Notes: generated by a model from the sequence alone, not told the origin. Numbered from the stretch's first letter, positions 759-33,753 are shown. The stretch: 64,000 nucleotides of DNA from an uncultured Nitrososphaeraceae archaeon (GCA_963729045.1 CAVSMN010000018.1:1-64000); one strand, 5' to 3'. Made by a program: numbers and translations.

Positions 759-798
759 TATTAGAACCATACTACTCCAGGGAACTTAATCCCCACGC
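759..798 (+). repeat. Array site 1 (left arm A, right arm R3)
   Basis: TATTAGAACCATACTACTCCAGGGAACTTAATCCCCACGC-GTCCAAACT. Confidence 0.9.
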
Positions 799-978
799 GT
801 CCAAACTCAATGATCTTTTATTTGGTAATATAGTAGTGCAAATAAGAAGTGAATATCTCTTAAAGATCTCTTCTAAAATAATAGATTTGATTTGAGAAAT
901 ATAGGTATTGGTTACATTATCATGTTTATTGCTACCCTTGCTGAAATAATTGAATCTACCTACAGCAAGACTAGCTAT

Positions 979-3618
979 CTAACTTCCACCTACAGATACA
1001 GGTGATTGTGACGCTAGTGTCGGTTGTGTTGCTGTTGCTGTTATAGCACCCTGTCTGAGAGCAGCGTCCATATTTACTTTGTTGTCTGCACTAAGTTGAA
1101 CATTCTCTCCGCCTAGATTCATTAGAAGTAATGCATTGACATTGCACCACCGAGATTCACAGGATTTCCACTCACAAGATCTAAACCTGTAGATTGTTCG
1201 GTCAGGTCTATAAAATATTGTGCTTGACCTGGAGCAGTAGAAGCTATTCTCTGTATTGGGACTATTGCGGATTGTGTTGTTTGTCCATCTTGTATTTTAG
1301 CTCCTACAAGTTGAATTCCTTTTTCGTCTGGTAAATTGAGTAAGACTTTCCCACTAGTAAGAATACATGGATCAAATGCTGCAAGTATTCGTGCTTTCCC
1401 ATTTTCCATTGGGGAGGGACCCAAGACAGTAGTTGCGGACTGTGGGGCACAATCTGCAGTGGGTGTTACTGCTCCGTCAAGTGTTCGTACTGTCAATCCT
1501 CCATCATTTCTCACAGTGACTTGATCATTGTTAATATTTGTTTTAGTAACTAGAACCGTCTTTGTAGTTGTAGCTGGTGTTGTAGTTGTAGCTGGTGTTG
1601 TAGTTGTAGCTGGTGTTGTAGTTGTAGCTGGTGCTGTAGATGTAGCTGGTGTTGTAGTTGGTGTTGTTGTAGCTGTACGCTGTGTGTTATCTGTAGTTGT
1701 CATCTGTTATCAGAAATACACTTGGAACCGCTAGGAGCATTCGACCCTGTCTTTCCACCAAACCCTACGATATGAGATCCTGCTGGACATGTTCCATCTG
1801 TATTTTTAGATACTTCTACTTCGGTACGGTGTAGTTGGTGTTTAGTTACATTCGGGACTGTGAGTAATTGTACGTTAAACAATCAGACTGGAATCAGTGG
1901 GCGTTGTAGTTGTAGCTGGTGTTGTAGTTTTGGCCGGCGTAGTTGTTTTCGCTGATGAGTTATCAGAAATGCACTTTAGAACCACTAGGAGTATCTTTCT
2001 GCAAAATCTTTACCATATGAAATCTTTTTGAACATTTTCTATCAGATCTTAGTAGGTAATTCTACTTGTAATGTGGTGTTATAGTGTTTCGGCTATTTGA
2101 AATGCTGTACAGATCTAGTACCTGGATTGACCTGTCCTTTCCACCAAACCCTACGATATGAGATCCTGCTGGACATGTTCCATCTGTATTTTTAGATACT
2201 TCTACTTCGGTCGGTTAGTTGAAGTTTTATTACAATCGGAACAGGTGTATGAAATAATTGTCGACAGAGGCGTTGTAGTTGTAGCTGGTGTTGTAGTTTG
2301 CGCTAGTGTCGCTGATGGTTATCAGAAATGCACTTAGAACCGCTAGGAGTAGCGGTATTAGAACAAACACTACGATATGAGATCCTGCTGAACATGTTTC
2401 ATCTGAATTTTTAGTTACTTCATCGTTTTGGCTTGTGTTTGGCTAGATGGGTTATCAGTTACACATTTAGAACCGCTAGGAGCACGACCTGTCTTTCCAC
2501 CAAACCCTACGATATGAGATCCTGCTGGACATGATCCATCTGTATTTTTAGGTACTTCTACTATCTTTTGGTGTTGTTGACGTTGTTGGTCCCCCTGGTA
2601 ATGTAGTTGTAGATTGGGTAGTACCTGGACCGACACATACACCTACGCTTGTTTCAGCAGTTCCAGTTGGACATTTTCCGTCAAGTCCTTTAGGAAAAGT
2701 TTGTGGTTCTCCTGTAGATATGTGCCACCTGTTTGCCCTGTGGTGTATAGGTCTGTTTTACTGGTGTTGCAGTTGTATCTGTAGTTGTTGATGATTTACA
2801 AGCGGGATCGGTGGGATTAGATTGGCAAATAGGATTATATAACAGGGAAAAGTGATTTGTTTCCTTTTGAGTTCGTATAATGGCAGTGGGGCTCAGTTAT
2901 TGTACGTAGTTGATGATTTACAAACATGGAGCTCGGGAGATCAGTCGTCTGATAACTGTGAGTGTCATGTTTACCTGGATCTGATTAGTTGTACCTGGAG
3001 CCGTCATGTTGTACCTGGGGTTGTTGTTGTACCACTAGTTGTCGATGATTTACAAAATGGAGCATCAGGAGAAGTCGTACAAATATTATTCTTACGGATC
3101 CGGAATCTCCAGGGATGGAACCAGATGGTGCTCCTGTTGTTGTACCTGGCGTTGTTGATGATTTACAAGCGGGATCGGTGGGATTAGATTGGCAAGGATC
3201 GGTATAGAAATAATCTCCCCACAGAACATTTGGTAATTTCTGATGGTGATGGTGATGGTGTTGTAGTCTGTACCTGTCCCTGTACCACATTCTTCCGTTG
3301 TAGCTGCCTGACTACCATTGGGACAATTTACAAGTTCGGGTTCAGTTTCTGGCTCAGTTTCTTCTTCTGGTACTCCAGGCTCTGACTCTACTTCTGGCTG
3401 TTCATTTTCTGATGAGCCATCATCTCCATCTGAACTACTCTCCATCTGAACTACTCTCCATCTGAACTACTACCTCCATCTGAACTACTACCTCCATCTG
3501 AACTACCTCCATCTGAACTAGCAAAGATATTAGATGACATTATCATGGCTGGGTTAGCAGATAGCATCATGGCTAATGTCAAAACTATAGTGAAACTAAC
3601 CGCAACATTTGGATTCAT
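979..3618 (-). pseudogene. Large secreted Thr/Pro/Ser-rich, Cys-repeat surface protein with many frameshifts
   Basis: ATG at 3618 with a signal peptide (MNPNVAVSFTIVLTLAMML), then SSDGG repeats, an EPE tract, DPCQSNPTDPACKS repeats, KNTDGTCPAGSHIVGFGG repeats, TTTPA repeats and a C-terminal domain ending at TAG 979. Joins several ORF-track fragments. Confidence 0.7.
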
Positions 3619-4112
3619 CTCTATTACTCCTCACTGTTGCAGTCATATTTTAAAATCGACTTAAAGTCACATACTAATTTCAAATAATCAGATGAGATGA
3701 GTGCATTGTTACTCATATCTCTATTATCTGTTGTTTTTCTAACGCCCATACTTCTATCCATAATTGGGTACGACTTGTACGCATTTTTGCTGTCAAGACA
3801 CATTATCATGATTGTATACTGGAATCAATATGGTGACTACTATATAACCATTTTATCCCTGTATTATCGATGTTCTCAAAAAATGCAAAACCTGTACTTC
3901 TGTAATACATTTAACAAATCGTTGATTATTTTATTGTTTTACATATGACATCTTAATTTAATAGAATAGGAAAGGTTTGGTATATAATAAAATAATCTGA
4001 TTCTTGTACTCTTTCATTAGTCTAATTATATTCACGTTTGATGTGTGTTCTAACATACTTTTGGGAATGATTCGCAATTCTTAAATATTAATGATGGTAT
4101 TATAATGTCAAC

Positions 4113-4502
4113 ATGATAAAGAAGGAGATTATATTGGCAATATCGATTTCTCTGGTTCTTACATTAGTTCCAACTGCTTACGCTCAAAAGGGCAGCTTTA
4201 TAGTAGAAGTAACATTTATTGACAGTTCAAGAAATGGACCCAATGATGTAAGCTTCTATATAGAAGAATATCCGGAATACTCGCGAGACAATATCGATTT
4301 AATTGATGCAATGTATGATGATGATCCTGATAGTCCGGATGGACAGTATACAACTAGAATAGTTATGCCGTCTGGTTTAATCAATACAAATGAGGATTTT
4401 CATGTTTGTGTGGTTGACGAAGATGATGGAAGTATATATGATTGTTATGAAATGACAAACAGTCCTAAGAAAGGTCCAGAATATCTCACAGTCAGAGTAT
4501 GA
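4113..4502 (+). CDS. Secreted acidic hypothetical protein
   Basis: Signal peptide ending AYA; a Cys pair in the mature part. Confidence 0.75.
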   Translation: MIKKEIILAISISLVLTLVPTAYAQKGSFIVEVTFIDSSRNGPNDVSFYIEEYPEYSRDNIDLIDAMYDDDPDSPDGQYTTRIVMPSGLINTNEDFHVCVVDEDDGSIYDCYEMTNSPKKGPEYLTVRV

Positions 4503-4638
4503 CAAACCATCCATTAATATAATTTTTGACTGTGATTGCAGACCTTGTATATTGGGACTTTCACAACCAAGATCCATTATTTTGCAATATGGTTCCTCTT
4601 TATACATAAAAGTTTGTGTCTCATTCTATTATTGATAC

Positions 4639-4682
4639 TAGAATCCTATTTAAAATACCGATATCTACACGAATCCCCACGG
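4639..4682 (+). repeat. Array site 2 (B, R1)
   Basis: TAGAATCCTATTTAAAATACCGATATCTACACGAATCCCCACGG-ATGAGAATTGTT. Confidence 0.9.
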
Positions 4683-4812
4683 ATGAGAATTGTTTCCAAT
4701 AATATGCCTTGCATGTCCGATTTAGAAGATTATATATAGGTAGTAGGACAAAGTAAGAAATTACTTCTCATTCAATCTTGCAATCTCCTATTGTTCCTGA
4801 ACTACAATTTCT

Positions 4813-4891
4813 TAATTCTAAAACTGCTAGAATATTAGAGTATTGCACCTAGTTAGCAATCCCAATATATTTTTTCCATAGTATTAAAGAT
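4813..4891 (+). promoter_or_regulatory. Conserved 79-bp upstream element of the N/Q-rich protein genes, copy 1
   Basis: Near-identical to 23902-23980, 41738-41816 and 53883-53961. Confidence 0.8.
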
Positions 4892-5340
4892 ATGAATAAA
4901 ACAAAAAATATTCACAACAAAAACAAACTCATTGTCGCATCAATCGCAATAGTAGTAGCATTAGCTCTTTTCGCAAGTCCCATTGTGACCATGGATGATG
5001 CTTTTGCAACTAAAAAGAAAAAGGTAACCAGGCTCACCAATCAATAAATCAATCACAAGCCTCAGTTCAAAATGCCTTGTGTGCTTCTGGTGGAACAACT
5101 TTTCTGTCATGCAATAACGTAAACTCCCAAAACCAAAAGAACAGTGGAAACAATGCATTAGCACAAGACGATGACGATGACGATAACGGTGGAAACTTTG
5201 CAGAACAAAGCATCAGCCAATCACAATCCTCTGAACAAAATAGCCAGGTAGTATCTGGTGGAGACACAATAGGCTCTGGTAACAACATTAACGTTCAAAA
5301 CCAAGAAAACTCTGGCAGCAACGCAGCAGCACAGAGCTAA
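4892..5340 (+). pseudogene. Secreted N/Q/S-rich repeat protein, copy 1 (1-bp deletion in an A-rich run)
   Basis: Collinear with 23981-24433; frame is lost at about 5012-5022 (AAAAAGAAAAAGG). Confidence 0.85.
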
Positions 5341-5545
5341 ACGTAATTTTTTATATTTTTATTCCTTCTTCCAGTTTATTTAATGATTAAACAATTTATC
5401 AGTAATTGCATTTTAGAGCCCTACTTCCATTAGGAACTTTTTACAAAGTTGTGATCTTTTGGTTTGTCATTTTACACATAATTAAAAATAGGATAACGTG
5501 GCCTTATTTGATGCTTTTATATTTATGATTGATATTTAGAGGAGC

Positions 5546-6094
5546 ATGAATAAGACTCTGTTAACATACACAATAATGCTCTTTGGACTTGGTCTTTCCA
5601 TAATATACTATGATCAAGTTGCAGTTGGCCAAAATCTTGATATTAATGATAATGCTGGACCATTTAGCTTTTTAAAAACAGGAACAAACTCTCTTAATAT
5701 TTCAGAACCAATATATCAAACCATCATTGGAAATTTCATAGATACAAAAGAGCTTTCCAATACACCTACACTTGTAACAGAAGAATCATTCCTCGAAGAG
5801 GCAATTATGAAAGACATAGGTAACGTAACAAACAGGATGACCTTTATCAATACATATGATGCTCAATCGGCTGTAATACAGGGAAGAGGCAACGGAACGA
5901 TTGAAACCCAGGATGGTCAAAGCATAGGATGGATATCTTCGGACGTTGGAGTCCTCAGCGAAAAAGGTCCTGTCTTTCATGGAATAATTCTATTTAATGA
6001 CACCAATAGTGAAAAACTATCATTTCTAAATGGTAAATTAGGAATATATAAAGATGCTCCGGAAATCCATAGAACTATTTGGTTGTTGGACTAG
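5546..6094 (+). CDS. Secreted hypothetical protein (GNGTIETxDGQ family)
   Basis: Signal peptide; homologous to 24564-25088 and more distantly to 33096-33677. Confidence 0.8.
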   Translation: MNKTLLTYTIMLFGLGLSIIYYDQVAVGQNLDINDNAGPFSFLKTGTNSLNISEPIYQTIIGNFIDTKELSNTPTLVTEESFLEEAIMKDIGNVTNRMTFINTYDAQSAVIQGRGNGTIETQDGQSIGWISSDVGVLSEKGPVFHGIILFNDTNSEKLSFLNGKLGIYKDAPEIHRTIWLLD

Positions 6095-6144
6095 CTATCA
6101 CCTAATAATTTTTACTACTCTATCATGATATCGAGTCCTCTTGA

Positions 6145-6183
6145 TATGGAACCCTACTACCACTAGGAACTCAATCCCCACGG
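6145..6183 (+). repeat. Array site 3 (A, R1)
   Basis: TATGGAACCCTACTACCACTAGGAACTCAATCCCCACGG-ATGAGAACTGTT. Confidence 0.9.
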
Positions 6184-6258
6184 ATGAGAACTGTTCCTAA
6201 AAACGTTATACAACTTCTTGAATCAAAAGAGAAAGTTTGTTTGTTTCTATTTGTAGAG

Positions 6259-6414
6259 TTATTCTTTTTTATCCTCTTCCTTTTCTAAGATTTCCTTTTT
6301 GATTGATTTGAATATTTTTTTATCCTTTTCTTCTGGGGTATTTTCAGATATTCCTACTAAATTTGATTCCTCAAACGCAAATTCATTTTCTCCGCTGTCA
6401 TTAACCGATGACAT
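6259..6414 (-). CDS. 51-aa charged small protein
   Basis: Hand-translated MSSVNDSGENEFAF...EEDKKE*; the main content between sites 3 and 4. Confidence 0.45.
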   Translation of the reverse strand: MSSVNDSGENEFAFEESNLVGISENTPEEKDKKIFKSIKKEILEKEEDKKE

Positions 6415-6492
6415 ATCAGGAACTTTTATACAAAAAGGATATAACTATCTATGTCTGAGTTTTCTTGAACTTCAGAAGTCATCACTTTATTG

Positions 6493-6524
6493 AGATTCTA
6501 TTCAACCTTGAATCGTATCTCCAC
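6493..6524 (+). repeat. Array site 4 (C)
   Basis: AGATTCTATTCAACCTTGAATCGTATCTCCAC. Confidence 0.85.
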
Positions 6525-6873
6525 ATGTCCGACAAGTAATTGAGTTTAGCAGACGGAATGGAATGAGTAAATTATAAACGTATACGAAAACATGCAAACC
6601 CGTTGTGAGTAAATCAAGGTTATCCATTTCACAGTGGTGCATAAAGCCTTGCATCTTTGTTCTTATAATTATATAAGCGATGTTTTCTAACTCATTGTAT
6701 GTGCTGTGATTACGAAATACCACTAGAAGAAGAAGAACAGGAAAAAACGATAGAAAAAGAAAAGAAAATAATCCAACCACACTTAGAAATCAGAAAGACA
6801 GAAGAAGAACCCATAGCAGCCTAAATTTTTTCTGTTTTTATGTATATGATGCGATAATACATTAGCATTATGC

Positions 6874-6912
6874 TATAGAACCTAACTACCACTGGGAACT
6901 TAATCCCAACCA
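6874..6912 (+). repeat. Array site 5 (A, R1-like; degenerate)
   Basis: TATAGAACCTAACTACCACTGGGAACTTAATCCCAACCA-ATGAGGACTG. Confidence 0.8.
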
Positions 6913-7525
6913 ATGAGGACTGATATTAATATAGCATATAGTCCATCATATGATGATATTTATTATGTAAAATATAAAAATCTGTATCCTCATATGTCGT
7001 TAATATTTAATCGTCTTTGAACATTTCAATTTCCATAGCCTGTAGCGTTTTCCCCATTATTACTACATCAATAACCTGCAAACTCTTCCACCTAGATTAT
7101 TTCTTTTGTAATTTTTAATATTTTCAGCAATAATGATTGCTTAGCTTTCATCGTGCTAGGAGGACTGAAATTGTAGATTATTGAATTGTTAAATAAAACA
7201 GAGTCTGGAGATTCAAAGATCATTGCTTTATATACCTTCCATACTCTCCTATCCAACCATTTCTATTATCTGATGAGTTCTCTTCATATTTGTCTTCACT
7301 AACGGTATGAACTCTTGGTTTTTGTTTAAGGTTGTCCCATCCTCAAACTCTTTTTGAAAAGGATACTATATGGTTACTACCTCATTACCAATAATAAATT
7401 AAATGTTTTATTCATGCTAATTAGACACAAACTAGTATTTACTTTAAGAAAAATTAGTCATATCAAATTTAAGCTTTGTCGTCACATTAAAAGAGTCAAC
7501 TTGGGTGTAGGGAGGTATTAGTGTT

Positions 7526-8017
7526 TTGTCGGATCGATTTAATACTGATAGTAATCTAGATGTTCATACTAACGATAGAGCGAAGACTAAATCCTTAAAA
7601 GCATTTGATTGGATAAAAGCAGCAAAAATAATAAAAGAAAACAGCATTCAAAATGCAAGCATGGGATTAGGTGTTACTTTAGATGATACTATCTCCATAT
7701 TACAAAATGGAAAACCAATAAAAATTACTGACAATATGTTTTTGTCCAGTGACTCTAATCCTGTCCTGATAAACAATGATACTGGAGAAATAGTGAATTG
7801 TTTCTTTAACATCAATGAGCAAGATATGGAATACAACAATCTCTATATTCCAAGTTCAACGGAAGTAACAAAGTTATCAGGATGGTCGAAATCAGCACTC
7901 GCTATTATTAAAGAGGCGTTTTATTATAAAAATATCCAGGAAAACAAATTTTCACAGGTTTATTTGCTATGCTCACTTTTCTACTTCTGGAGGATATTAG
8001 AGTGTGGGTGTCTTTAA
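7526..8017 (+). CDS. Hypothetical protein
   Basis: 163-aa ORF; GGAGG lies upstream of the TTG start. Confidence 0.6.
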   Translation: MSDRFNTDSNLDVHTNDRAKTKSLKAFDWIKAAKIIKENSIQNASMGLGVTLDDTISILQNGKPIKITDNMFLSSDSNPVLINNDTGEIVNCFFNINEQDMEYNNLYIPSSTEVTKLSGWSKSALAIIKEAFYYKNIQENKFSQVYLLCSLFYFWRILECGCL

Positions 8018-8140
8018 CAATTTTCAATGCTCATGGATAAATCAATAAATATCTCGACCGTTATCATTTACCTATTTGATTAGGACTGACCAGTTGTTTG
8101 ATTATGTTTATTTTTTATGTATAGAAGTTATGGATCAGTG

Positions 8141-8180
8141 TATTAGAACCCCACTACCACAAGGAACTTAATCCCCACGG
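8141..8180 (+). repeat. Array site 6 (A, R2)
   Basis: TATTAGAACCCCACTACCACAAGGAACTTAATCCCCACGG-GCACGCGATAAATTTGAC. Confidence 0.9.
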
Positions 8181-8271
8181 GCACGCGATAAATTTGACTA
8201 TAAATTCTCTAACTCGATATCCGTACCTACATAACATGATTATAACATATCATAAATAATAGAAATCTGAA

Positions 8272-9645
8272 ATGGTTAACCCAGATTCATATTCGTCGCA
8301 CTCAAATTTAGGATCTAGTATGGAGCAATACCCAGTGGAGAATTCCGGATGGTCCGAAATAGACGAATGGGGGCCCGAAAAAGTATTGCAGGTATATGAT
8401 CCTGACACTGGTATGAAAGGTGTTTTGGTTATCGACAATACCTCTACTGGTCCTGGCAAAGGAGGAATAAGGTTTGCGGAAAGTGTTACCCCTATGGAGG
8501 TATTTAAGCTTGCAAGAACAATGACCTGGAAATGCGCATCGGCGGGACTACCATTTGGTGGTGCTAAAGGAGGAATTATAGCAAACCCAGGTAAAGTAAA
8601 CCAAGTAGAATGGATTAAATCCTTTGCCAAAATGATAAAACCTTATTGCCCCTCCCAATATATTGCAGCTACTGACGTTGGTACAACCGAATTGGATATG
8701 GCAGTATTTGCACATGAGATCGGAGATATGCGAGCATGTACTGGTAAGCCGCAAGAACTTGGAGGAATTCCTCACGAACTGGGAACAACTGGATACGGTG
8801 TGAGTGTTGCACTAAGAACCACAATTGATTTTTTAAAAGAATCCAAACGTAAAGGATTAAAACCTTCCAGGCCCTTTATTGATCTCACAAACAGTTTAGA
8901 TACAAAAAACAATGATATCAAAGTAGTTATTCAGGGATTTGGTAATGTGGGTTCATTTACTGCAAAATTTCTAAATGATTTAAATATAAAAGTTATAGGC
9001 GTTAGCGATGTCTCGGGGTTTGTATTTGATGATAATGGTTTGGATATTCCGCAATTAATGAGAGATATGAAAGACAAGTCCAAGTTAAGTGATCTGTTAG
9101 ATAATCAACAACAGCAGCAGCAACATCTTTATAATATTTTGGATAAAGATGAAATTTTTAACGTAGATTCAGATGTTTTTATTCCTGCAGCACTGACCGG
9201 TGTTATCAACGATAAGACTGCATCCAAGTTATTAGAACATAATGTGAAGATCATTGTAGAGGGGGCAAATATTCCTACTACACCATCAGCTGATCAATAT
9301 TTAGTGAATAATAATATTTTAATCATTCCGGATTTTCTTGCAAATTCTGGCGGTGTAATCGGATCATTTGTTGAGTATCAAGGTCGAACAGAAAAAGAAG
9401 CCTTTGATCTAATTGAATATAAAATTGCAAATAATGTTAAAAGGGCACTTTACAACTCAGTACAATTAACAGACCAGGAAGGTGATAATTCACAACTTAA
9501 TGTTAGAAAGGTTGCGATGGAAACAGCAAAACAAATAGTATATAGAGCAATGTTATTAAGAAAGGGTGCAATTAGTGTCGCAAGAGAAGCCTATGCAAGA
9601 AAAGAGCGAGTTAATTTATTAGGTAAATTAAATTGTTGTTACTGA
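8272..9645 (+). CDS. gdhA: Glu/Leu/Phe/Val dehydrogenase family, glutamate dehydrogenase-like
   Basis: GPGKGGIRF, MTWK, GGAKGG, IQGFGNVG, EGAN and PDFLANSGGV motifs. Confidence 0.85.
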   Translation: MVNPDSYSSHSNLGSSMEQYPVENSGWSEIDEWGPEKVLQVYDPDTGMKGVLVIDNTSTGPGKGGIRFAESVTPMEVFKLARTMTWKCASAGLPFGGAKGGIIANPGKVNQVEWIKSFAKMIKPYCPSQYIAATDVGTTELDMAVFAHEIGDMRACTGKPQELGGIPHELGTTGYGVSVALRTTIDFLKESKRKGLKPSRPFIDLTNSLDTKNNDIKVVIQGFGNVGSFTAKFLNDLNIKVIGVSDVSGFVFDDNGLDIPQLMRDMKDKSKLSDLLDNQQQQQQHLYNILDKDEIFNVDSDVFIPAALTGVINDKTASKLLEHNVKIIVEGANIPTTPSADQYLVNNNILIIPDFLANSGGVIGSFVEYQGRTEKEAFDLIEYKIANNVKRALYNSVQLTDQEGDNSQLNVRKVAMETAKQIVYRAMLLRKGAISVAREAYARKERVNLLGKLNCCY

Positions 9646-9828
9646 TACAAGTAGATGAGAAAAATTATGATTCAAATCAATTCGATATATTCAATAAAAT
9701 TTATCAAAAAATTTAGTTGGTGTTTTATTGCAATCGGGATCGTTGGAGATTCGATTGACAGAAAGCATCGGCTAGAAGAAATAAAAATACTCAAGTGAAA
9801 AAATTATGATTTCTCTATCTGATTTACT

Positions 9829-10215
9829 TTACAATTGTCTGTCAAATTCTCCGGTTATTACTTTTGAATCAGGGGAAAGAAGCCTTGTCCATTCTTCATA
9901 ACCTTGTTGACATTCCTTATCGTTCGACATTTTTGCACAAAGTTCATCTCTATGTTTCTTATCTTTATACGACATAATGGTTATCCATACATCTTCATCT
10001 GTACTAGCTGAAACTGATTTAGAAATGTTTTCGAATCCTTCCCAACTAGTATTTACTGCAAGTCGAAATAACTCATAATGTATTTCCTCTTTATCAAACA
10101 TTTCAGATGACTTTTTTTCAAGTGCTGTTAATGCTTCGTAATTCCTTTTTGGTGATCGTGCGATCATGAATTCTGAATAACTATAGTTCTTGTTATTACC
10201 TTGTTGATTATTCAT
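9829..10215 (-). CDS. DUF1428-like dimeric alpha/beta barrel protein
   Basis: Paralog of 26478-26879; YKDKKHRD...ITGEF pattern. Confidence 0.65.
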   Translation of the reverse strand: MNNQQGNNKNYSYSEFMIARSPKRNYEALTALEKKSSEMFDKEEIHYELFRLAVNTSWEGFENISKSVSASTDEDVWITIMSYKDKKHRDELCAKMSNDKECQQGYEEWTRLLSPDSKVITGEFDRQL

Positions 10216-10294
10216 ATATGCTTCAAAATTACTCTAGATTGAATAAATAAAAAGGATAACTCCCCAAGGGGAGGTTTATTAATAAGGAAAAAAG

Positions 10295-10630
10295 TTGTTA
10301 ATTAATCTGCCAAAACCAAAGCGAAATAAAATGGAATTATATTATGATATACTCAAAGGTATTTTAGATGAGCTAGTTGACAATGAGAGTGGTTATGGTA
10401 ATAGTAAAGTAAAACCTACACGAGTACAACTTAGGAGCAATCTTGCATACGATAAACTTGCCAAGTATCTTAATGAATTAGAGAGCAATAAGATGATAAT
10501 AAAGGATCCACTTCAAATAACTCCAAAAGGAAGAGATTTTTTAAAGGATTTTGACCGAATTGCTTCCTTTTTGATAGAAATGGGTATAAGATACTTTGAT
10601 TCATCGAAAGTAGTGGGGTTGAGAAATTAA
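10295..10630 (+). CDS. Winged-helix transcriptional regulator (archaeal type)
   Basis: KRNKMELYYDIL...PTRVQLRSNLAY...ITPKG. Confidence 0.8.
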   Translation: MLINLPKPKRNKMELYYDILKGILDELVDNESGYGNSKVKPTRVQLRSNLAYDKLAKYLNELESNKMIIKDPLQITPKGRDFLKDFDRIASFLIEMGIRYFDSSKVVGLRN

Positions 10631-10632
10631 CA

Positions 10633-11253
10633 ATGGATATGCATGATGATAACGATGGTGAAATTTATCACCCACTGACATTTGTTGACCAATTAGAAAA
10701 AAACAAACATATAGTGTTATTATATGATGACCAAAAATATGCCTTTTGGATAATAGCTAGGTATTTTTTAAATGGTCTTAATAAGGGTGAATCATGTATT
10801 TTCTTTACTTCAGATAATCCAGATGAAATTGAAAATAGATTAAACAAGGAAGGTATTGATGTAAGATATTATAAAAATAATAACTTGTTACGTATCTATA
10901 CCATTGAAAGATCGGATGATAATAAACGGGATACTTTAAGCGTGCTTAAGCATATAAGAAAAGATGCCACCATAGGAATGAAGCCCCCATTTAGATTTGC
11001 AGGAAGAACAATAACAGATACAGAAACAAAGGAAGGAATGAAACTTGGCATTGTTTTGGAAGAAGTTGGGCATGAAAATTTTGACAGTTTTAATAATTCA
11101 CAAATGTGTTTTTATGATATCTCTAAAATAGAAAAATCGATGAGACCAAGATGGATCCACGATCTTTTGAAAGCTCATCACTGTGTTATCTACGCATCAG
11201 AACCTAATAAAGCAGTAGCATTTGATACTAATCTACTTGAGGATGAAGATTAA
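10633..11253 (+). CDS. MEDS-domain sensory protein
   Basis: HIVLLY...YFLNGLNKGESCIF...CFYD...HHCVI. Confidence 0.75.
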   Translation: MDMHDDNDGEIYHPLTFVDQLEKNKHIVLLYDDQKYAFWIIARYFLNGLNKGESCIFFTSDNPDEIENRLNKEGIDVRYYKNNNLLRIYTIERSDDNKRDTLSVLKHIRKDATIGMKPPFRFAGRTITDTETKEGMKLGIVLEEVGHENFDSFNNSQMCFYDISKIEKSMRPRWIHDLLKAHHCVIYASEPNKAVAFDTNLLEDED

Positions 11254-11495
11254 TGAGAAAATATAGGACTGAAGTACCACAGTCAAAACCTTTTTTGAAT
11301 TCTTTATTGGATAAAATTGAATAAGTTTTCTATAAAATATTATTTTTGTATTTGTCCCGTCGAGTATTGCCAGAGTTCAAATCCCTATGCCGTTGATGTG
11401 AGAAAAAGACAATACAAAAACTAAAAGACATAGACCTTAAATAATCTAACCAGTAGTTTTCAAAAAGCTTAAATCATTTATCCTCATACTGGCGC

Positions 11496-11546
11496 TTAGA
11501 ATCCCATTTAAAATAAAAATACCGATATCGGCACTAATCCATACGG
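11496..11546 (+). repeat. Array site 7 (B with a 6-bp duplication, R2)
   Basis: TTAGAATCCCATTTAAAATAAAAATACCGATATCGGCACTAATCCATACGG-CCCCGCAATAAATTTGA. Confidence 0.85.
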
Positions 11547-11935
11547 CCCCGCAATAAATTTGAAAATTTTTGGATTCAATCTAAAAAATTTGATGAGATC
11601 TATAAGCAAAATATAAGCAAAATATAAAAAACCTTGTTTATCTGATCCCATTCACCCGATAAGAAGAAAGAAATAAGAATCATCCTCTATATTATCGCTC
11701 AAAACATATATACTCAGAATATTAAGTAGACCAGATTATTTGTATGAATCATCACCTTGATTTAGAATTTTTTAATCGGTCACCATAACAATACAAATTC
11801 AACATATGTAACAGATAAAATATGAAATAACATCTGAGTCATAATAAGTAGCAGTAAGAAACATTTCAATACAGGAAAAAACAAGGACAGAATTAATATC
11901 TTTATTAGGCATCTGCAAAAACATATGATTATGAT

Positions 11936-12508
11936 TTGTTCTTAGAAAATAGAAAACAAAAAAAAGAAAAGGTCATAGAACTCTACCTAGAGGGTAAAAC
12001 AGTAAGGGAGATTGCAAAAATCGTCCACATGTCGTTTAGTGATATTGGCGAAATCGTAAAAGAATATAACGAGCTAAAAACAAGGGAGAGCCTCAAGGGG
12101 GATACAATCATATCTGATGAAACCAAAGCGATTGAGCTTTTTTCTAAAGGGAAAAGACCAATTGAAGTAAAGATAGCCTTGAACATTAGTACTGAAGAAG
12201 TAGAGATATACTACAAGGCTTATTGGAAATTAGTAGGACTACATCAACTATATAAATACTATGAAACTGGGATAAAAAATGATCTACCTTCTTTTCTAAA
12301 GTTATATAGTAAAGCAAAAGAACTAGGAATATCAAATGACGATGTTATTAGAGCGTTAAAATATTTAAATGACATTCCATTTTTGGGAATAAGGTTTAAA
12401 CAACTAGAAAATAAAATCAAGAATTTGACCATTAGAAAAGAACATCTTATTTCCGAATTAGATGAACTGGAATTTAGCATAAATAAATTTAAAAATTCAT
12501 TTGAATAA
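11936..12508 (+). CDS. Double-HTH / coiled-coil protein, probably element-associated
   Basis: KVIELYLEGKTVREIAKIVHMSFSDI HTH, second HTH-like segment, C-terminal coiled coil. Confidence 0.7.
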   Translation: MFLENRKQKKEKVIELYLEGKTVREIAKIVHMSFSDIGEIVKEYNELKTRESLKGDTIISDETKAIELFSKGKRPIEVKIALNISTEEVEIYYKAYWKLVGLHQLYKYYETGIKNDLPSFLKLYSKAKELGISNDDVIRALKYLNDIPFLGIRFKQLENKIKNLTIRKEHLISELDELEFSINKFKNSFE

Positions 12509-12544
12509 ATCTAAAAAGAAGCAATACAAGTTATCCATTAAATC

Positions 12545-12835
12545 AAAATAAAAGGAAAAATTAAGAAAAGACACCAATTTCAGGCTGTTCATTCATTGCG
12601 TAAATGGTTCAAAACTCGAGCTGAAAACGGTGGAATGAAACCAATTAATGTGGAGATTTTGCTTTGTCTCAGCCTGGGAATAAGTTCGTCCTATTACCGC
12701 CTTACAGAAACAGATTTACTTGAAGACTATTGGAAAGTTTTAGATCAGTTGACATTTGATAAACAAGAAAAAATGGAAAGGGAATTGCAGAGAAATCATG
12801 AAGAAATTCAAGAAGAAGAACCCATAGCAGCCTAA
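12545..12835 (+). pseudogene. Tyrosine recombinase/integrase C-terminal fragment
   Basis: KRHQFQAVHSLRKWFKTRAE...INVEILLCLSLGISSSYYR contains the HxxR box and the catalytic-Tyr region. The GH motif is decayed and the N-terminus is absent. Confidence 0.8.
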
Positions 12836-12891
12836 TTTTTGAATTTTTTTTTATTTTGATGTGTAGATTGGCTAATACAAAGTAAAATTAC

Positions 12892-12929
12892 ATAGAACCC
12901 TACTATCACAAGGAACTTAATTCCCACGC
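12892..12929 (+). repeat. Array site 8 (A, R3)
   Basis: ATAGAACCCTACTATCACAAGGAACTTAATTCCCACGC-GCCCAAACT. Confidence 0.9.
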
Positions 12930-13172
12930 GCCCAAACTAGTCGTTCTGTATCGACATATTGAATTGCGTTATCTGTAAAAACATTGCAAATTGAATCACA
13001 TCTGACTCACCTGATACCAACCATTTTTGAATTGGTGATGTTTTCAAGAGTTCAATCAGGATTATACACTTTCATAACTCCATCCATATGGGTGTTTACT
13101 AACTTAGGGTCATTTGTTTGATAATCTGCAAGAACTTGTTTTTATATATTAGAAAAGATAAATGTATTGTTT

Positions 13173-14108: not shown

Positions 14109-14419
14109 TCTACTTTAGAATTATTAATTTACCTTATAAGTTCATCTTCTACCAATTCAACTAATGATATAGATAGTTTTCATGCTCAAGGTCAAATATC
14201 TAATCAGACGAATTAAAATCAAATTTAATATCGCATCACTATTCTTAAAAAAGATATATGTATCTGAACCTATAGGAATTGAGCCCTTTTTTATCTGTGA
14301 AAATGCAGCAGAAACCACCGGACCCAATCCATTGGTACGCTTCCGATAAGGAGTGATGTAAATTTTGATAAATGGCAATTTCACATAAAGTTTTTAAGAA
14401 ATACTATTCTCTTATTTAG

Positions 14420-14463
14420 TAGAATCCCATATAAAATACCGATATCAGCACTAATCCCCACGA
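14420..14463 (+). repeat. Array site 9 (B, R1-like)
   Basis: TAGAATCCCATATAAAATACCGATATCAGCACTAATCCCCACGA-ATGAATACT. Confidence 0.9.
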
Positions 14464-14571
14464 ATGAATACTACAACTACTTATCCGAGTATTGACATGA
14501 TTAAGTTCAAAAATAAGAATTACGCTTGTATTTAAGATATTCTTAAATATTTAATTATTTCATACAGTCCG

Positions 14572-15441: not shown

Positions 15442-15496
15442 TAGCCAAAGATTCTGATTTGGTTATTTTTCATTAATTTTACAATATTGCTTGTCA

Positions 15497-15530
15497 GGAT
15501 TCTATTCAACCTTGAATCGTATCCCTACGG
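15497..15530 (+). repeat. Array site 10 (C, R1)
   Basis: GGATTCTATTCAACCTTGAATCGTATCCCTACGG-ATGAGAACTGTT. Confidence 0.9.
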
Positions 15531-15702
15531 ATGAGAACTGTTACTGACAATCTTACTAATTATTAAATTACGAAGACTGGATCTGGATGATAGAAGTAAA
15601 ACAAGAAATTAATTCTAGGACCTACCATATAGCAAATCATTATTTAGCTTCTATTAATGAGCAAATAACCGAACCAATTGTTCTAAAAAGTTATAGCTCT
15701 TA

Positions 15703-16080: not shown

Positions 16081-16188
16081 AAAGGGATTTTTGTAATATC
16101 TTACTTTAAGTTTATCATAAAAAAGGAGATAGTCAAACAGCCTAAACTTGTTCACCATTTTCAATTCCTGTATAGAATATTGGTGTTA

Positions 16189-16228
16189 TATTAGAACCCT
16201 ATTACCACAAGGAACTTAATCCCACCAG
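16189..16228 (+). repeat. Array site 11 (A, R2)
   Basis: TATTAGAACCCTATTACCACAAGGAACTTAATCCCACCAG-ACCCGCGATAATTTGACC. Confidence 0.9.
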
Positions 16229-17455: not shown

Positions 17456-17789
17456 ATTCCGATTGCTGCAGCTATGACTGAGTTAAGCATGCTGCAGTGC
17501 CCGAAATCAGCGCGTTTGGGAAGGAGTTAAGCTTAGACAAATAATGAGGAATCCATCTATTAAGATATGTTACAACATTGGAATCTTTCAGAGAACTAAA
17601 TCCGAAATCAGACAAATGAAATACTTCATGCGTAATTGCATATGCAATTTCCCACCCCATACAACCCATGTCTTTGGACATTCGTTAACAGTTGTGTAAA
17701 AAATGGCGTATATGTTTGTGTAAATTTATAGTGTTTGTTTAGACATCATATCGTAACATCTTTAGCTTTCTATTTTGAATTATCTTTAT

Positions 17790-18640
17790 TATGAGTGATA
17801 TTTTCCTCATGTTGATTTCTGATAATGAAATAAACAAGTTGTATGGTATGATGCAAATTGGGAATGAAGAATCTAGTTATCGTTTCAAGATCATTCTGTT
17901 TAAGAATAAAGAATATACAGTTCCTGAGATAAGGATGGCTATCAATCATCACTATGTCGACATAAGAAAATGGATACATCGATTCAATGAACATGGTGTC
18001 GAGGACTAGTATCAAGAATATACAAGTACAGGTCAATCAAGGTAACGACAGGGATTGAGAAAGGATTGTAGAGATACCACCCAAAATCCAAGAGAAGGTT
18101 ATGGTCTACCTTTCTCAAAGTGGTATTTAAGGGTACTAGCAGGGTACATATCCAAGGAACTTAACCTTGTTAATTCCACAAGTCATACTCAGGTTAGAAA
18201 CATACTTGTTAAATACGGAATAAAATACAGGCGATCTAAGGTCACGCTAGGAAATAACTTGGATCCAGAATACCATTTGAAAAAAAGAGGATTGAAGGAC
18301 TAAGGTAAAATAAGTTACCTGTTGACTAGGTCCTTCTTTACGAAGAGGAGAAGGGTCCTTTAGTAACAAAAACATATGGAGGTATCCCATGGTCTTCCAT
18401 CCAGTCAAAGATATAAAAGGCTCAAAAGATAAAAGGCATTCTAAATGTGTTTGGCGTCTATGACCATACTAACGACCAGATGTGGACACACGGCTACAAA
18501 AAGAAAACCGGATAATAGTTCTTTGATTTTATCAAACGAGTGGATCAAAAATATGACTATAGCATAAAGCAAATTTTTCTAGTTCTGGATAACGTATCAA
18601 TCTATAGATCAAATAAGGTAAAGAAAGTTCTTGCCCGATT
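17790..18640 (+). mobile_element. IS630-like transposase pseudogene
   Basis: HTH segments (IRKWIHRFNEHG; W.LRVLA), AAAAAAAG at the ORF junction, LNVFGVYD and FLVLDNVSIYRS DDE segments; several stop codons. Confidence 0.8.
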
Positions 18641-19160: not shown

Positions 19161-19294
19161 TTGATCTACAGTAAAGTGAACATTATGGATATCTAACAAT
19201 TTTTTTTGAAGAGAAAATCTGCCTCGGTTACATAACTAAACCTTACAAAAGATCTATAGTTGATTTATGTTTTAGATGGGTATTTTTTTGCACT

Positions 19295-19328
19295 GGATTA
19301 TGTTCAACTCTGAATCATATCTCCACGA
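19295..19328 (+). repeat. Array site 12 (C, R2)
   Basis: GGATTATGTTCAACTCTGAATCATATCTCCACGA-GCCCACGATAATTTGACC. Confidence 0.85.
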
Positions 19329-19604
19329 GCCCACGATAATTTGACCATATTCTTGGGTATATTACATTTTATAATACTGCCCTTGAATATATTATTAACA
19401 ATATTCAATAATGTTTTTGTAAGCAAAAGTTAATTCTATTTGTATGAAAGTTATTCATGGATACTGGATTGACTTCTTACATTAATCTAATTAGTATTAT
19501 TCGTCCTTACTTATCTTTTAATCAGCAGTCTAACTTTGATATATTTCACTCTTTACTTTATGGTCGAGATTCATTTTACGAGAGTTCTTGAGTCTCCAAA
19601 TGTA

Positions 19605-22095: not shown

Positions 22096-22371
22096 TTGTT
22101 TTAAATACGTAAATAAAAATGATATCAATCTATTGAAGCAGTGTAAAATATCATCTTATATACGCCCATTTAATTACATACTAATATTTATCACTGCAAG
22201 TACCCCCATCCTTTTACGATATAGCAATATATCTTTGGTTTCTATTCCCGTTATTACTAAATCAAAAAATTCCATGATTGTGATTGAATTAAGTGGGTAT
22301 GAACTAAGACATGTATTTGCAAAGCATTTAGCTTGAGGTAAAATATTTATGAAGTATTTTTGTTAGATAAA

Positions 22372-22415
22372 TAGAATCCTATTTAAAATACTGATATCAG
22401 CACTAATCCCCACGG
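22372..22415 (+). repeat. Array site 13 (B, R3)
   Basis: TAGAATCCTATTTAAAATACTGATATCAGCACTAATCCCCACGG-GCCCAAACT. Confidence 0.9.
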
Positions 22416-22565
22416 GCCCAAACTGCTTAATTTTACCAGTCTAATGGTTCAAACCAAACCCAATTCTAAAAGTGGAAAGATTGAATGACGAGGAAACCTA
22501 CATCTATACAGTGTTGATATCTGTTAATAGTTAATTAATTTGATAACTAGAAAATTAACGTGTGG

Positions 22566-23516: not shown

Positions 23517-23729
23517 TAATGCAATACATCTCTATACAGTATTTATCGGATATTGTAATATAAAAACAAATATTGATATTAAATTTAAGTCGTCGTTCAA
23601 ATCATCTCATATCTTGCTGTTTGTCACATGAACATAATTGATCCTTATTTTGATCCAGGTTTTGAAATCAAGCATATACTAGAGCAGATATTGTCCTAAT
23701 GTTAACCTATGTTGTCTTAACTTAAACTG

Positions 23730-23769
23730 TATTAGAACCCCATTACCACATGGAACTTAATCCCCATGG
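23730..23769 (+). repeat. Array site 14 (A, R1)
   Basis: TATTAGAACCCCATTACCACATGGAACTTAATCCCCATGG-CTGAGAATTGTT. Confidence 0.9.
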
Positions 23770-23980: not shown

Positions 23981-24433
23981 ATGAATAAAACAAATATTCA
24001 CAACCAAAACAAAAACAGCAAACTCTTTGTTGCATCAATTGCAATAGTAGTAGCATTAGCTCTTTTCGCAAGTCCCATAGTGGCTATGGATGACGCCTTT
24101 GCAACTAAGAAGAAAAAAGGTAACCAGGCTCAACAATCAATAGATCAATCACAATCCTCAGTGCAAAACGCCTTATGTGCTTCTGGTGGAACTACATTTC
24201 TATCATGTAACAATGTTAGCTTCCAAAATCAAAAGAACAGTGGAAACAACGCATTAGCACAAGATGATGATGATGGAAACGGTGGAAACTCTGCAGACCA
24301 AAGCATCAGCCAATCTCAATCCTCCAGCCAAAACAGCCAAGTAGTATCAGGTGCAGATACAATAGGTTCTGGTAACAACATCAACGTTCAAAACCAAGAA
24401 AACTCTGGTAGCAACGCATTAGCACAGAGTTAA
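23981..24433 (+). CDS. Secreted N/Q/S-rich repeat protein, copy 2
   Basis: Signal peptide plus two imperfect repeats A.QSI.QSQSS.QN...SG..T..S.NN...QNQ.NSG.NALAQ. Confidence 0.9.
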   Translation: MNKTNIHNQNKNSKLFVASIAIVVALALFASPIVAMDDAFATKKKKGNQAQQSIDQSQSSVQNALCASGGTTFLSCNNVSFQNQKNSGNNALAQDDDDGNGGNSADQSISQSQSSSQNSQVVSGADTIGSGNNINVQNQENSGSNALAQS

Positions 24434-25088: not shown

Positions 25089-25266
25089 TTTGACGTAAAA
25101 ACGATATCACGGTACTAAAATTATTTTTTTCATTATTTTTTATTACAATCTCTAGACCTAGGATTAATGTTGGATCTAGGATGTTTTGGATATATTGACA
25201 ATTTTTAATTGGTGAGATGGAGCAATTAACTCTATTACTTTTATCGGATCTGATTTTGTATTGGTG

Positions 25267-25304
25267 TAATAGAATCCCATTGCCACAAGGGACAATCCCC
25301 ACGG
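25267..25304 (+). repeat. Array site 15 (A, R4-like)
   Basis: TAATAGAATCCCATTGCCACAAGGGACAATCCCCACGG-ATATAT. Confidence 0.85.
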
Positions 25305-30400: not shown

Positions 30401-30450
30401 CAAAACACGATGCTTTTGCCAATTTTCGCTATCTACAAGGTCAACATTTG

Positions 30451-30490
30451 TATTAGAATCCTACTATCACAAGGAACTTAATTCCCACGG
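30451..30490 (+). repeat. Array site 16 (A)
   Basis: TATTAGAATCCTACTATCACAAGGAACTTAATTCCCACGG-GCCATCT. Confidence 0.9.
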
Positions 30491-30917
30491 GCCATCTGCT
30501 ACGATGACCATTTCTAAATAATCTAATTAATGTTGATTAGACATATATCCACGAATAAATTGATTTAGCCGTTTAGTCTACTATACTCAAACCTCTTTTG
30601 CACAAACTGAATTGTCGAATCCATTCAGCAATAGTGCCTTGATTAAATTAGATTTAACTAATGAAAGGCTTAACAGGGCCATTTTGATTATAAAATAAGT
30701 ATGGAAACCGATCAAGATTTAGAGGAATTAAAAGAAGAACATGAACAAGAGGAGGAAGAAATAAGAGATAAATTAGAAGAGGAAGAATAGGAACAACGGA
30801 TTAGAGTTCTTACCAAAAAATGAAAAAAACATTCCGTGGAAAACACTGACATCGCAATTATCTCAAGGTACATTATTAGTTAATAATCTTTATATTTTTC
30901 ATTATTCTATATACTCA

Positions 30918-30961
30918 TAGAATCCTATTTAGAATACCGATATTGGCACTAATCATCACGC
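30918..30961 (+). repeat. Array site 17 (B, R3)
   Basis: TAGAATCCTATTTAGAATACCGATATTGGCACTAATCATCACGC-GCCCATACT. Confidence 0.85.
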
Positions 30962-31941: not shown

Positions 31942-32033
31942 TTATACTTGAGTTCCAGGCCATTCTACCGCATATCTCTCGGCCCGAATTCTATGGATCA
32001 GATCAATTAAACAAATCCTCCGAGGATCTAAAT

Positions 32034-32077
32034 TTGAATCTTCTTTAAAGAACCGATATCGACACTAATCCCCACGG
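32034..32077 (+). repeat. Array site 18 (B, R4)
   Basis: TTGAATCTTCTTTAAAGAACCGATATCGACACTAATCCCCACGG-ATGCATGC. Confidence 0.85.
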
Positions 32078-32753: not shown

Positions 32754-32989
32754 CAATGACTGAGGAACTGATGAAGTATCTTTCTAAATTTGAATTTAAT
32801 AAAGGACAACTTTTGAAATTAGAATTTAATCAGATACAACAATATTACTGTCTATAGCATTTTTACTATCAAAATAGAATTGTCAACTTTTTTATATAAT
32901 TACTTGACCCGGGCATGAATATTCGTATATGATGACCACCTATTAAAATCAATTAATAATTCTCTCCCCATTTCAGATTACTTATGATC

Positions 32990-33023
32990 TGATTGTATCC
33001 AACCTTGAATCATATCTCCACGG
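32990..33023 (+). repeat. Array site 19 (C, R4)
   Basis: TGATTGTATCCAACCTTGAATCATATCTCCACGG-ATGTATCC. Confidence 0.85.
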
Positions 33024-33095
33024 ATGTATCCATGAGGCAGATAACCACATGGATAAATACAAGTCATTTTTATATATCCTTTTTAATACATTTAG

Positions 33096-33677
33096 TTGAT
33101 GAAAAAACAACCAGCAATTTTAGTTTTAATCGTGATGGTGGTAACAACTATCTATGCACTTTCATTAGGAAATACAGGCTATTCACAACAACAAGGTGAA
33201 AACAGTATTTTGGATTCCATAGATGTGAAAAATACTAATCTGACTCTTGGTAAACCTTTCTACACTGAAAAATTTGAATTTCCATCAAGTCAAAATTCCG
33301 GAGACTCTGAAAATAATAGTGCTTCTGCCAATTCTGTGTACTCCTTTGAAGGTAATGGAACATTAGACAATTTGCAAATAACTGCTTCTGGAAGTGGTAA
33401 TGAAGTTTCAAGAGATGATGGAACTAACTTTCTTACTGGTAGAGCGCTTTTTACCTCTTCTCAAAACGGTACTGCAAGTTATTCCTTTGAGGCCATAACA
33501 AATACTACTGAAGAAGGCATTAGAACAAGTCTAGGGGCTGCATTCTTTGATGCTAACGCAACAGGAAATCTAGAATCGCTTAAGAGTATTGTAGGAGTTT
33601 ATGAATCATACATAGACGAAGGTCACGGAAAAGGGATCTTTGCAATGTGGCATATTAAAGACCTATTACCTAAATAG
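33096..33677 (+). CDS. Secreted hypothetical protein, distant GNGT-family member
   Basis: Signal peptide; P.Y, GNGT, G...F.......L..L....G.Y and terminal W pattern shared with 5546-6094. Confidence 0.7.
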   Translation: MMKKQPAILVLIVMVVTTIYALSLGNTGYSQQQGENSILDSIDVKNTNLTLGKPFYTEKFEFPSSQNSGDSENNSASANSVYSFEGNGTLDNLQITASGSGNEVSRDDGTNFLTGRALFTSSQNGTASYSFEAITNTTEEGIRTSLGAAFFDANATGNLESLKSIVGVYESYIDEGHGKGIFAMWHIKDLLPK

Positions 33678-33720
33678 TAGTAGATTATTAATCTATTTTT
33701 TTATCAGTGTTTGATATTTA

Positions 33721-33753
33721 GGATTATCTATAACGTTGAATCATATCCCATGG
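33721..33753 (+). repeat. Array site 20 (C, degenerate; last clear site)
   Basis: GGATTATCTATAACGTTGAATCATATCCCATGG-ATAAGGAATGTT. Confidence 0.7.

Follow-up and report, generated by a model that had tools for sequence, protein, structure and literature searches.

A probable tRNA-Lys-seeded array of gene cassettes in ammonia-oxidising archaea of the family Nitrososphaeraceae

On Acinetobacter plasmids, resistance modules are bounded by sites for XerC/XerD (pdif modules), and in Streptococcus thermophilus elements of the ICESt1/CIME kind reportedly accrete at one att site, with integrase-less members that are mobilizable in cis. Archaeal integrons are defined by IntI and attC in the accessible text of Ghaly et al. 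(2022, PMC9668308), and the accessible part of PMC6563490 gives thaumarchaeal att sites as short, with a median of 17 bp. In the islands of Prochlorococcus, active elements account for only 3.6% and most island material is not site-bounded, according to the accessible sections of 10.1101/2020.12.28.424599. Here we describe a dense array of 20 short sites in a 64,000-nucleotide stretch of DNA (GCA_963729045.1 CAVSMN010000018.1:1-64000, hereafter the window) from an uncultured Nitrososphaeraceae archaeon, whose genome encodes archaeal AmoA and whose genus we guess to be Nitrosocosmicus. The array is probably a cassette array that was seeded at a tRNA gene and is driven by site-specific recombination, which would make it an analogue of integrons and not an integron. 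Related genomes are designated below by G numbers and contigs by C numbers, C18 being the contig of the window.

The original prediction, made from the sequence of the window, had placed 20 intergenic sites of 32-51 bp on the + strand, dividing 33 kb of accessory genes into 19 modules. All 20 sites proved real, + stranded and intergenic, and profile hidden Markov models (HMMs) detected 20/20 of them at E <= 6.3e-6; their extent was underestimated, as each is a composite of about 45-75 bp in which a left arm is followed by a core of 10-11 bp, (A)ATCCCCACG, and a right arm. At one mismatch or fewer, the window contains 13 matches to ATCCCCACGG where 0.86 would be expected, and 0 of 100 shuffled sequences attained that number. 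Twelve of these matches are listed sites, every one on the + strand, and the thirteenth (57404), which is armless and lies within a DUF2196 open reading frame (ORF), was rejected as a site. The core is exact in six sites, has one mismatch in six, two in three and three in four, and in the last site (33721) can be fitted only with an indel. Left arms, which occupy about 35 bp upstream of the core, fall into three types (A, n=9; B, n=6; C, n=5 in the window), and the right arms, about 15-30 bp downstream of it, also group into few classes. A/T-rich, TATA-like stretches occur in the right arms, 15-25 bp past the core (e.g. 8181-8207 and 22416-22440), and a + strand gene starts 73-109 bp downstream in four sites; such stretches could be leftover integrase promoters or putative promoters of the next module.

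Sites occur about once per 1.7 kb in the window, and the 19 modules measure 343-5186 bp from core to core and hold 0-5 genes each on either strand, in line with the predicted 0.3-5 kb. None of the 20 sites overlaps an ORF of at least 100 amino acids (aa); the three sites with cores at 789, 4673 and 6517 overlap four ORFs of 64-92 aa without a Pfam match. Tandem, convergent and divergent gene pairs all flank sites, at gene-site distances of 20-1071 bp, and neither the position nor the orientation of the sites relative to genes is fixed; a fixed position would be expected of a transcription factor site. In the whole 2.85-Mb assembly the HMMs found 55 sites at E <= 0.01, of which C18 carries 34 in two groups, 20 on the + strand at 0.75-33.75 kb and 14 on the - strand at 81-140 kb, with none between them (33.8-81 kb). 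Sites are clustered and co-oriented, not scattered genome-wide in both orientations, and within the window they end at 33.75 kb, as had been stated. Among 121 genomes, type A sites were present in 7/7 of the genus, 0/7 from other genera of the family and 0/107 from the rest of the order.

A genome-wide scan for the core located one copy inside a tRNA gene, that of tRNA-Lys(UUU), which has a 17-nt intron and ends in ...GGGGTTCGAATCCCCACGGGCCCGC, so that the core runs from the end of the T-loop through the 3' strand of the T-stem into the first part of the acceptor strand. In several sites 15 nt are identical to the 3' end of this tRNA, of which the assembly contains one full copy. In 3/3 complete congener genomes the main array, 90-190 kb long, begins just downstream of tRNA-Lys(UUU) in the same orientation, with a tyrosine recombinase gene of about 400 aa or a remnant of one at its head. 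In G015 the tRNA (514.2 kb, +) is directly followed by an integrase-like ORF of 407 aa, then by one of 734 aa and one with a PriX domain, and next comes a type C site at 524.1 kb; 59 sites lie in 505-675 kb, 53 of them on the + strand and six on the - strand at 645.7-654 kb. In G012 (tRNA at 1175.5 kb, -) 21/23 model hits lie at 1087-1175 kb, all on the - strand, and only a 104-aa N-terminus of the integrase is left. In G101, where the tRNA ends at 339.07 kb (-), type A sites (-) span 321 to 130 kb and an intact 414-aa integrase is encoded 14 kb downstream of the tRNA.

Two further contigs showed the same layout: G007:C24 carries the tRNA, an intact 419-aa integrase and then (-) sites, and on G002:C160 the tRNA is followed by four co-oriented sites without an integrase. 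The contig G004:C12 is interrupted within the tRNA; the intact integrase encoded at this end has 384 aa, and eight co-oriented sites come after it. The original prediction had called for an integrase or anchor site, and both now have candidates at the main arrays of congeners, in the form of tRNA-Lys(UUU) and a tyrosine integrase; the left end of the window array itself is unassembled. The head elements behind tRNA-Lys (locus L014, from G015:C1, at 9303-14714, and locus L036, from G101, at 1964-8026) encode an integrase and large ORFs, and in G015 the head element includes a PriX-domain (primase subunit) protein, which suggests that head elements are a plasmid-like integrative element.

In the genome of the window, tRNA-Lys(UUU) lies on C9, 3 kb from a contig end. 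The 14-site (-) array of C18 (81-140 kb) is most likely the tRNA-linked array of this genome, pointing towards C9, because window positions 38-50 kb are collinear with G015 762-777 kb and the tRNA-linked contig of G002 has a module in common with C18 81.0-83.3 kb. The array of the window is a second, denser one in the opposite orientation to C18:81000-140000. Module 9827-11540 recurs at 95% identity in the G002 array that adjoins the flank equivalent to C18 75.9-78.3 kb, so modules are common to both arrays. Contig-end overlaps linked the starts of C18 and C9 to no other contig, and the first 5.5 kb of G004:C13, a contig with a comparable array, contain no tRNA, integrase or recognisable anchor.

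The array-head integrases were compared with recombinases by sequence and by predicted structure. A phmmer search of the integrase against PDB sequences gave chance matches only, and a profile of nine family members matched XerA in the PDB (E = 0.002). The NCBIfam XerA-type model reached E = 3e-9, yet far below its cut-off, and apart from the models named in this text no NCBIfam recombinase model matched the head integrase at E <= 0.1. An AlphaFold2 model (pLDDT 76.5) had 37 PDB matches at E <= 0.001, those listed all being recombinases of this class (XerA, VchIntIA, XerH, Cre, Tn1549 Int and lambda Int), and showed an additional long C-terminal helix. The alignment contains conserved blocks SSGIRxGA, HGFRK and GHS...SYY, which supply R, HxxR, H and Y when residue roles are assigned by eye. 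With this predicted two-domain fold and these catalytic residues, we classify the array-head proteins as distant tyrosine recombinases. The genome of the window also encodes an intact paralogue, about 40% identical, at tRNA-Arg, and its single serine recombinase (C12:250 kb) is not near any array. Right arms after the cores at 8171, 11537, 16219 and 19319 repeat the G015 stretch between tRNA and integrase.

Homology to related genomes breaks at the cores. BLAST of window 1-20000 against 30 relatives returned matches in 18/18 same-genus genomes, with blocks that begin or stop at cores (e.g. 788-1696, 3038-4682, 6174-6910 and 9827-11540). When window 1-34.5 kb was compared locally with congener arrays and the rest of its own genome (blocks of at least 200 bp at 80% identity or higher; n=35), 11/70 block ends lay within 10 bp of a core, against a null mean of 1.19 and a maximum of 6 in 5000 permutations, so the breakpoints are not unrelated to the core. 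Only 1/35 blocks spans a core, and most of the other 59/70 ends coincide with the ends of paralogous genes or fall within modules. G004:C13 (69 kb) has 29 sites at E <= 0.01 in the later profile scan, all +, and had 31 hits in the first HMM scan. Five unique blocks are common to this contig and the window; they occur there in the order 1, 15, 13, 3-4, 11, with orientation kept in 5/5. One module, situated 4 kb away from the G002 tRNA, is separated in the genome of the window by at least 60 kb from the contig end that comes closest to the presumed place of the tRNA.

The arms indicate where an exchange would take place. The left arm moves with the module on its left, and the window and G004 agree in the arm that closes modules 1, 4 and 11; the right arm moves with the module that follows it. 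In G004 the left-arm type ahead of modules 1, 3, 13 and 15 differs from the one in the window, so these exchanges took place within the approximately 11 bases that the sites share. Among 112 aligned sites, T at core position 4 was found in 8/46 of type C, 1/47 of type A and 1/19 of type B, and C at core position 10 goes with the GCCCAAAC right-arm class (38/49); the pairing of left-arm with right-arm classes is close to random (chi-square p = 0.07). As position 4 tracks the left arm and position 10 the right arm, we infer that exchange occurs at about positions 5-9.

Attachment-type recombination is the best explanation of the sites. The core segment of tRNA-Lys would be the target of the approximately 400-aa Xer/Cre-like tyrosine recombinases encoded behind the tRNA, and the head integrase may act on these sites and single modules may still move; as comparative data go, the proposal of a site-specific gene-capture platform is supported, with gene capture and present-day mobility as its conditional parts. 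In the mechanism that we propose, integrase-carrying elements would integrate at the tRNA core, and a stretch between two co-oriented cores could be excised as a circle with one left-arm/core/right-arm site. The circle might then be reinserted at the tRNA or at any other core, with integrase supplied in trans and strand exchange within about CCACG. Over time this would yield arrays of 90-190 kb in which small integrase-less modules carry accessory genes. A broader and more tentative proposal, to which we give somewhat less than even credence, is that the genus, one of soil ammonia oxidisers, independently evolved the integron principle: an Xer/Cre-like recombinase anchored at tRNA-Lys(UUU) would excise and reinsert in trans any module between two-armed sites of tRNA origin, arrays of 90-190 kb with 50-100 cassettes would hold much of the flexible gene pool, secondary arrays would arise away from the tRNA, and the three left-arm types would represent three recognition modes.

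Several observations weigh against a recombination-driven array. The evidence for recombination at the sites consists of the comparative breakpoints and one short contig joint. Public sequencing runs, 13 in number and from several studies, include half or more of the words sampled from 4.6-14.5 kb, and metagenome contigs of four runs were aligned on window 1-20000; a single contig of run X1 passes from the core at 4671 to that at 8170, with 11 letters in common and a shorter side of 31 letters, and the main X1 contig keeps the order of the window. As many as 8/20 cores have at least two mismatches or an indel. The module at 11537-12920 is a decayed integrase element, which fits a simple decay of tandem insertions. 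The (+) array starts at the first base of its contig, its left end is missing from the assembly, and ARAGORN found no tRNA in the window. Integrases of the head family scored 23.2 and 17.9 bits with Pfam PF00589 against a cut-off of 27.1, and the best NCBIfam match, NF040815 ('tyrosine recombinase/integron integrase'), reached 36.7 bits against a cut-off of 220. In G101 the integrase occupies the tRNA-distal end of the head element and is oriented towards the tRNA. The genome of the window, in an assembly 87% complete, has no PF00589 match at E <= 0.01, and the tRNA-Lys-type integrase is present there in truncated or frameshifted copies. Small co-oriented clusters lie far from tRNA-Lys, with no tRNA beside them (G015:C1:196409-208371 and G101:C1:652037-669031). 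Finally, G002 differs upstream of GDH from the end of the right arm on, not from the core, and the GDH and DUF1428 units, separate in G002, are fused in the window's genome without a site between them.

Other joints in the metagenome contigs were discarded. Cross-matching of similar sites, or an extension beyond the aligned stretch, accounts for those at 14462->8139, 20000->14420 and 19277->15495 and for loose ends at 8139, 8177, 12893 and 12932, and the joints 829->15507 (side 24) and 15545->4807 (side 36) are too short to count. For the secondary G015 cluster (196-208 kb), no tRNA was present in the 2.4 kb upstream examined.

The array might instead be a graveyard, in which the sites are passive scars of serial insertions of integrase elements at tRNA-Lys, the integrases and most other genes were later deleted, and the present order arose by deletion, duplication and homologous recombination between the 45-75-bp repeats. 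This we consider rather unlikely, with a good deal in its favour. Head elements such as that of G015 combine an integrase with a replication-type gene (the PriX-domain protein), the module at 11537-12920 keeps an integrase fragment behind a tRNA-like right arm, and four right arms of the window repeat the sequence after the G015 tRNA; many cores are degenerate and the genome's own integrases decayed. Multi-module blocks are duplicated within the genome (C18 138.8-139.9 kb, C1 4.7-5.8 kb and C13 8.5-9.6 kb), and the tycheposon model of island growth, in the accessible sections of 10.1101/2020.12.28.424599, is of this kind. Against it, an integrase remnant is present in only 1/19 window modules, modules are as small as 0.34 kb, and arms remain recognisable on hundreds of unrelated small modules and between species that are only 70-85% identical in the genes they share. 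Exchanges took place between different left-arm types with about 11 bp in common, too little for homologous recombination, and order is permuted while orientation is kept; serial insertion predicts a shared distal order, which was not seen.

It is very improbable that the sites are a dispersed regulatory or structural element (a transcription factor site, a terminator or a REP/MITE-like repeat). They are intergenic, have A/T-rich right arms and, in type B, include a 10-bp palindrome with one compensatory variant, as such an element might; they nevertheless keep to a single strand irrespective of how the flanking genes are oriented, at varying distances from these. Consensus folds of the three site types gave only 3-7 pairs at about -1 kcal/mol, with no conserved hairpin, and neither the identity of the core with the end of a tRNA gene at which arrays begin nor homology breakpoints on the core would be expected. 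A canonical integron, or an attC cluster lacking an integrase (CALIN), shares the co-oriented array of short sites separating small accessory-gene modules and can otherwise be dismissed, as no attC-type paired inverted core or long imperfect hairpin is present (RYYYAAC...GTTRRRY has three + and four - matches in 1-34.5 kb and, as originally noted, none at a site), the integrase falls far short of the integron-integrase model (36.7 bits against 220), the anchor is a tRNA gene with the integrase inside the first module, and modules carry 0-5 genes on either strand.

Compared with described systems, the tRNA-seeded cassette array that we favour is related to a known kind, the tRNA-seeded islands of integrated elements. 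Like pdif modules, it consists of small modules bounded by short sites of Xer-like recombinases in varied contexts; pdif sites have alternating orientations and depend on the Xer system of the host, whereas the sites described here all point the same way, originate from a tRNA and go with an integrase of the element type. ICESt1/CIME is likewise said to combine direct att repeats, integrase-less units movable in trans and a tRNA 3' target. The accessible parts of PMC8371274 and PMC6563490 describe such features for tandem archaeal integrations, and the short core agrees with the short thaumarchaeal att sites of PMC6563490. Known cases of accretion have two to few units of several kb or more, whereas tens to about 100 units of 0.3-5 kb occur here. 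As in tandem tRNA elements, the direct repeats represent the 3' part of the tRNA and are co-oriented with it, and a tyrosine recombinase gene adjoins the target tRNA (intact in G015, G007 and G004; none on G002:C160); units do not each carry integrase or replication genes of their own, present or former.

Tycheposon islands resemble the arrays in their tRNA seed, proximal tRNA-specific tyrosine recombinases, scattered partial tRNA copies and integrase fragments, replication-type head genes and flexible genes (accessible sections of 10.1101/2020.12.28.424599). They differ in host, which here is an archaeon, and in the sites, which here are dense and regular (53 co-oriented in about 150 kb in G015), fall into discrete arm types and bound nearly every module. 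Chromosomal integrons likewise have long co-oriented site arrays with small accessory modules, a primary site beside a tyrosine recombinase gene, site families with a common short core, and an order that differs between relatives with breaks at sites; the arrays described here are co-oriented and their cassettes differ between relatives. In integrons, however, the primary site is attI and not the 3' end of a tRNA gene, attC forms a hairpin where these sites have two conserved double-strand-type arms without one, and the integrase gene lies beside attI outside the cassettes and not inside the first site-bounded unit. The integrase found here is also not IntI-like by curated models, modules have 0-5 genes on either strand, and IntegronFinder-type criteria, as given in the accessible text of PMC9668308, would miss the system.

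Full-text literature searches, supplements not covered, returned no description of such arrays in ammonia-oxidising archaea. The main text of PMC6563490, in its accessible part, has 0 occurrences of Nitrosocosmicus, and for Nitrosocosmicus epidermidis the accessible part of PMC13245735 mentions islands flanked by integrases and no site arrays.

The cargo of the window consists of metabolic, regulatory or small secreted-looking proteins, not defence genes (Table 1). Pfam bore out the gene content named in the original prediction, with GDH, a polysaccharide deacetylase, GNAT, a divergent MarR/methyltransferase pair and a RibD_C (DHFR-like) protein; proteins called secreted have a hydrophobic N-terminus, as judged by eye. 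PADLOC found no defence system, matching 1/33 ORFs by a generic methyltransferase domain, and none of the 79 window ORFs belongs to a recombinase Pfam family. A metagenome contig of run X8 lacks 11578-12507 and joins 11577 to 12508 with 10 letters common at the joint. Two multi-copy repeats of 0.55 kb and 0.94 kb, considered as recombinases, proved to be a secreted-looking protein family and an IS630-like element. The former, of about 150 aa with a hydrophobic N-terminus, Q/S/N-rich repeats and no Pfam match, has dozens of copies per genome in the genus, in and outside arrays; the latter occurs many times in congeners as intact, frameshifted two-ORF copies (L009/L010). Within module 1, 1563-2746 gives overlapping, offset homology blocks to G004:C13 and G002:C188, and metagenome contigs skip and back-step there, which suggests internal repeats. 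Outside the array, an 86-aa ORF at 39835-40095 (-) aligns only to positions 346-428 of the RPE65 (carotenoid oxygenase) family and is probably a gene fragment, and adjacent Cupin_1 ORFs at 48022-48594 and 48591-49073, with a 4 bp overlap, may be a split or paired bicupin.

Table 1. Sites of the window array, with mobile-element remnants and repeated genes of the window and its genome
Feature	Position	Strand	Description	Observation
Site 1	753..798	+	type A; core 789-798	HMM E 1.4e-12
Site 2	4637..4682	+	type B; core 4673-4682	G004:C13 homology stops at 4682
Site 3	6141..6183	+	type A; core 6174-6183	G004:C13 block begins at 6174
Site 4	6484..6526	+	type C; degenerate core 6517-6526	
Site 5	6867..6912	+	type A; degenerate core 6903-6912	G004:C13 block stops at 6910
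Site 6	8137..8180	+	type A; core 8171-8180	right arm (to ~8207) as sequence after tRNA-Lys in G015
Site 7	11496..11546	+	type B; core 11537-11546; tRNA-like right arm	G002:C20 block stops at 11540
Site 8	12888..12929	+	type A; core 12920-12929	
Site 9	14418..14463	+	type B; core 14454-14463	
Site 10	15487..15530	+	type C; core 15521-15530	
Site 11	16184..16228	+	type A; degenerate core 16219-16228; tRNA-like right arm	
Site 12	19283..19328	+	type C; core 19319-19328; tRNA-like right arm	G004:C13 and own-genome C8 blocks stop at 19327/19332
Site 13	22370..22415	+	type B; core 22406-22415	15 nt as in tRNA-Lys 3' end
Site 14	23724..23769	+	type A; core 23760-23769	
Site 15	25262..25304	+	type A variant; core 25295-25304	G004:C13 block begins at 25295
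Site 16	30446..30490	+	type A; core 30481-30490	
Site 17	30916..30961	+	type B; degenerate core 30952-30961	
Site 18	32032..32077	+	type B; core 32068-32077	
Site 19	32978..33023	+	type C; core 33014-33023	
Site 20	33710..33754	+	type C; core with indel; last site of array	HMM E 6.3e-6
Integrase C-terminal fragment	12569..12835	+	just before site 8	tblastn 76% identity to residues 246-328 of G004:C12 integrase
930-bp insertion with helix-turn-helix (HTH) ORF (11936-12508)	11578..12507	+	inside decayed integrase module	Pfam HTH_28/HTH_23
Decayed IS630-like transposase copy	17684..18626		module 11	multi-copy homology in congeners; family from reading of motifs
~150-aa Q/S/N-rich family copy	23981-24433	+		
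~150-aa Q/S/N-rich family copy	41285-41737	-		
~150-aa Q/S/N-rich family copy	53430-53882	-		
~150-aa Q/S/N-rich family copy	4812-5369		decayed	
Own-genome integrase remnant	behind tRNA-Lys(UUU)		71-aa N-terminus	
Own-genome integrase remnant	start of C12		frameshifted copy	
Own-genome integrase remnant	at tRNA-Lys(CUU)		pseudogene	

Among nitrifiers, ammonia-oxidising archaea hold a key place, and little is understood of the ways in which they acquire and reshuffle accessory genes. If the proposed recombination holds, integron-like stockpiling of genes can arise from ordinary tRNA-att integrases, and integron-finding software is blind to the resulting arrays. The compact recombinase/site pair would be a candidate for a genetic tool, which this group lacks, and a dense, tRNA-anchored cassette array of about 100 kb would be a main engine of genome flexibility in these archaea.

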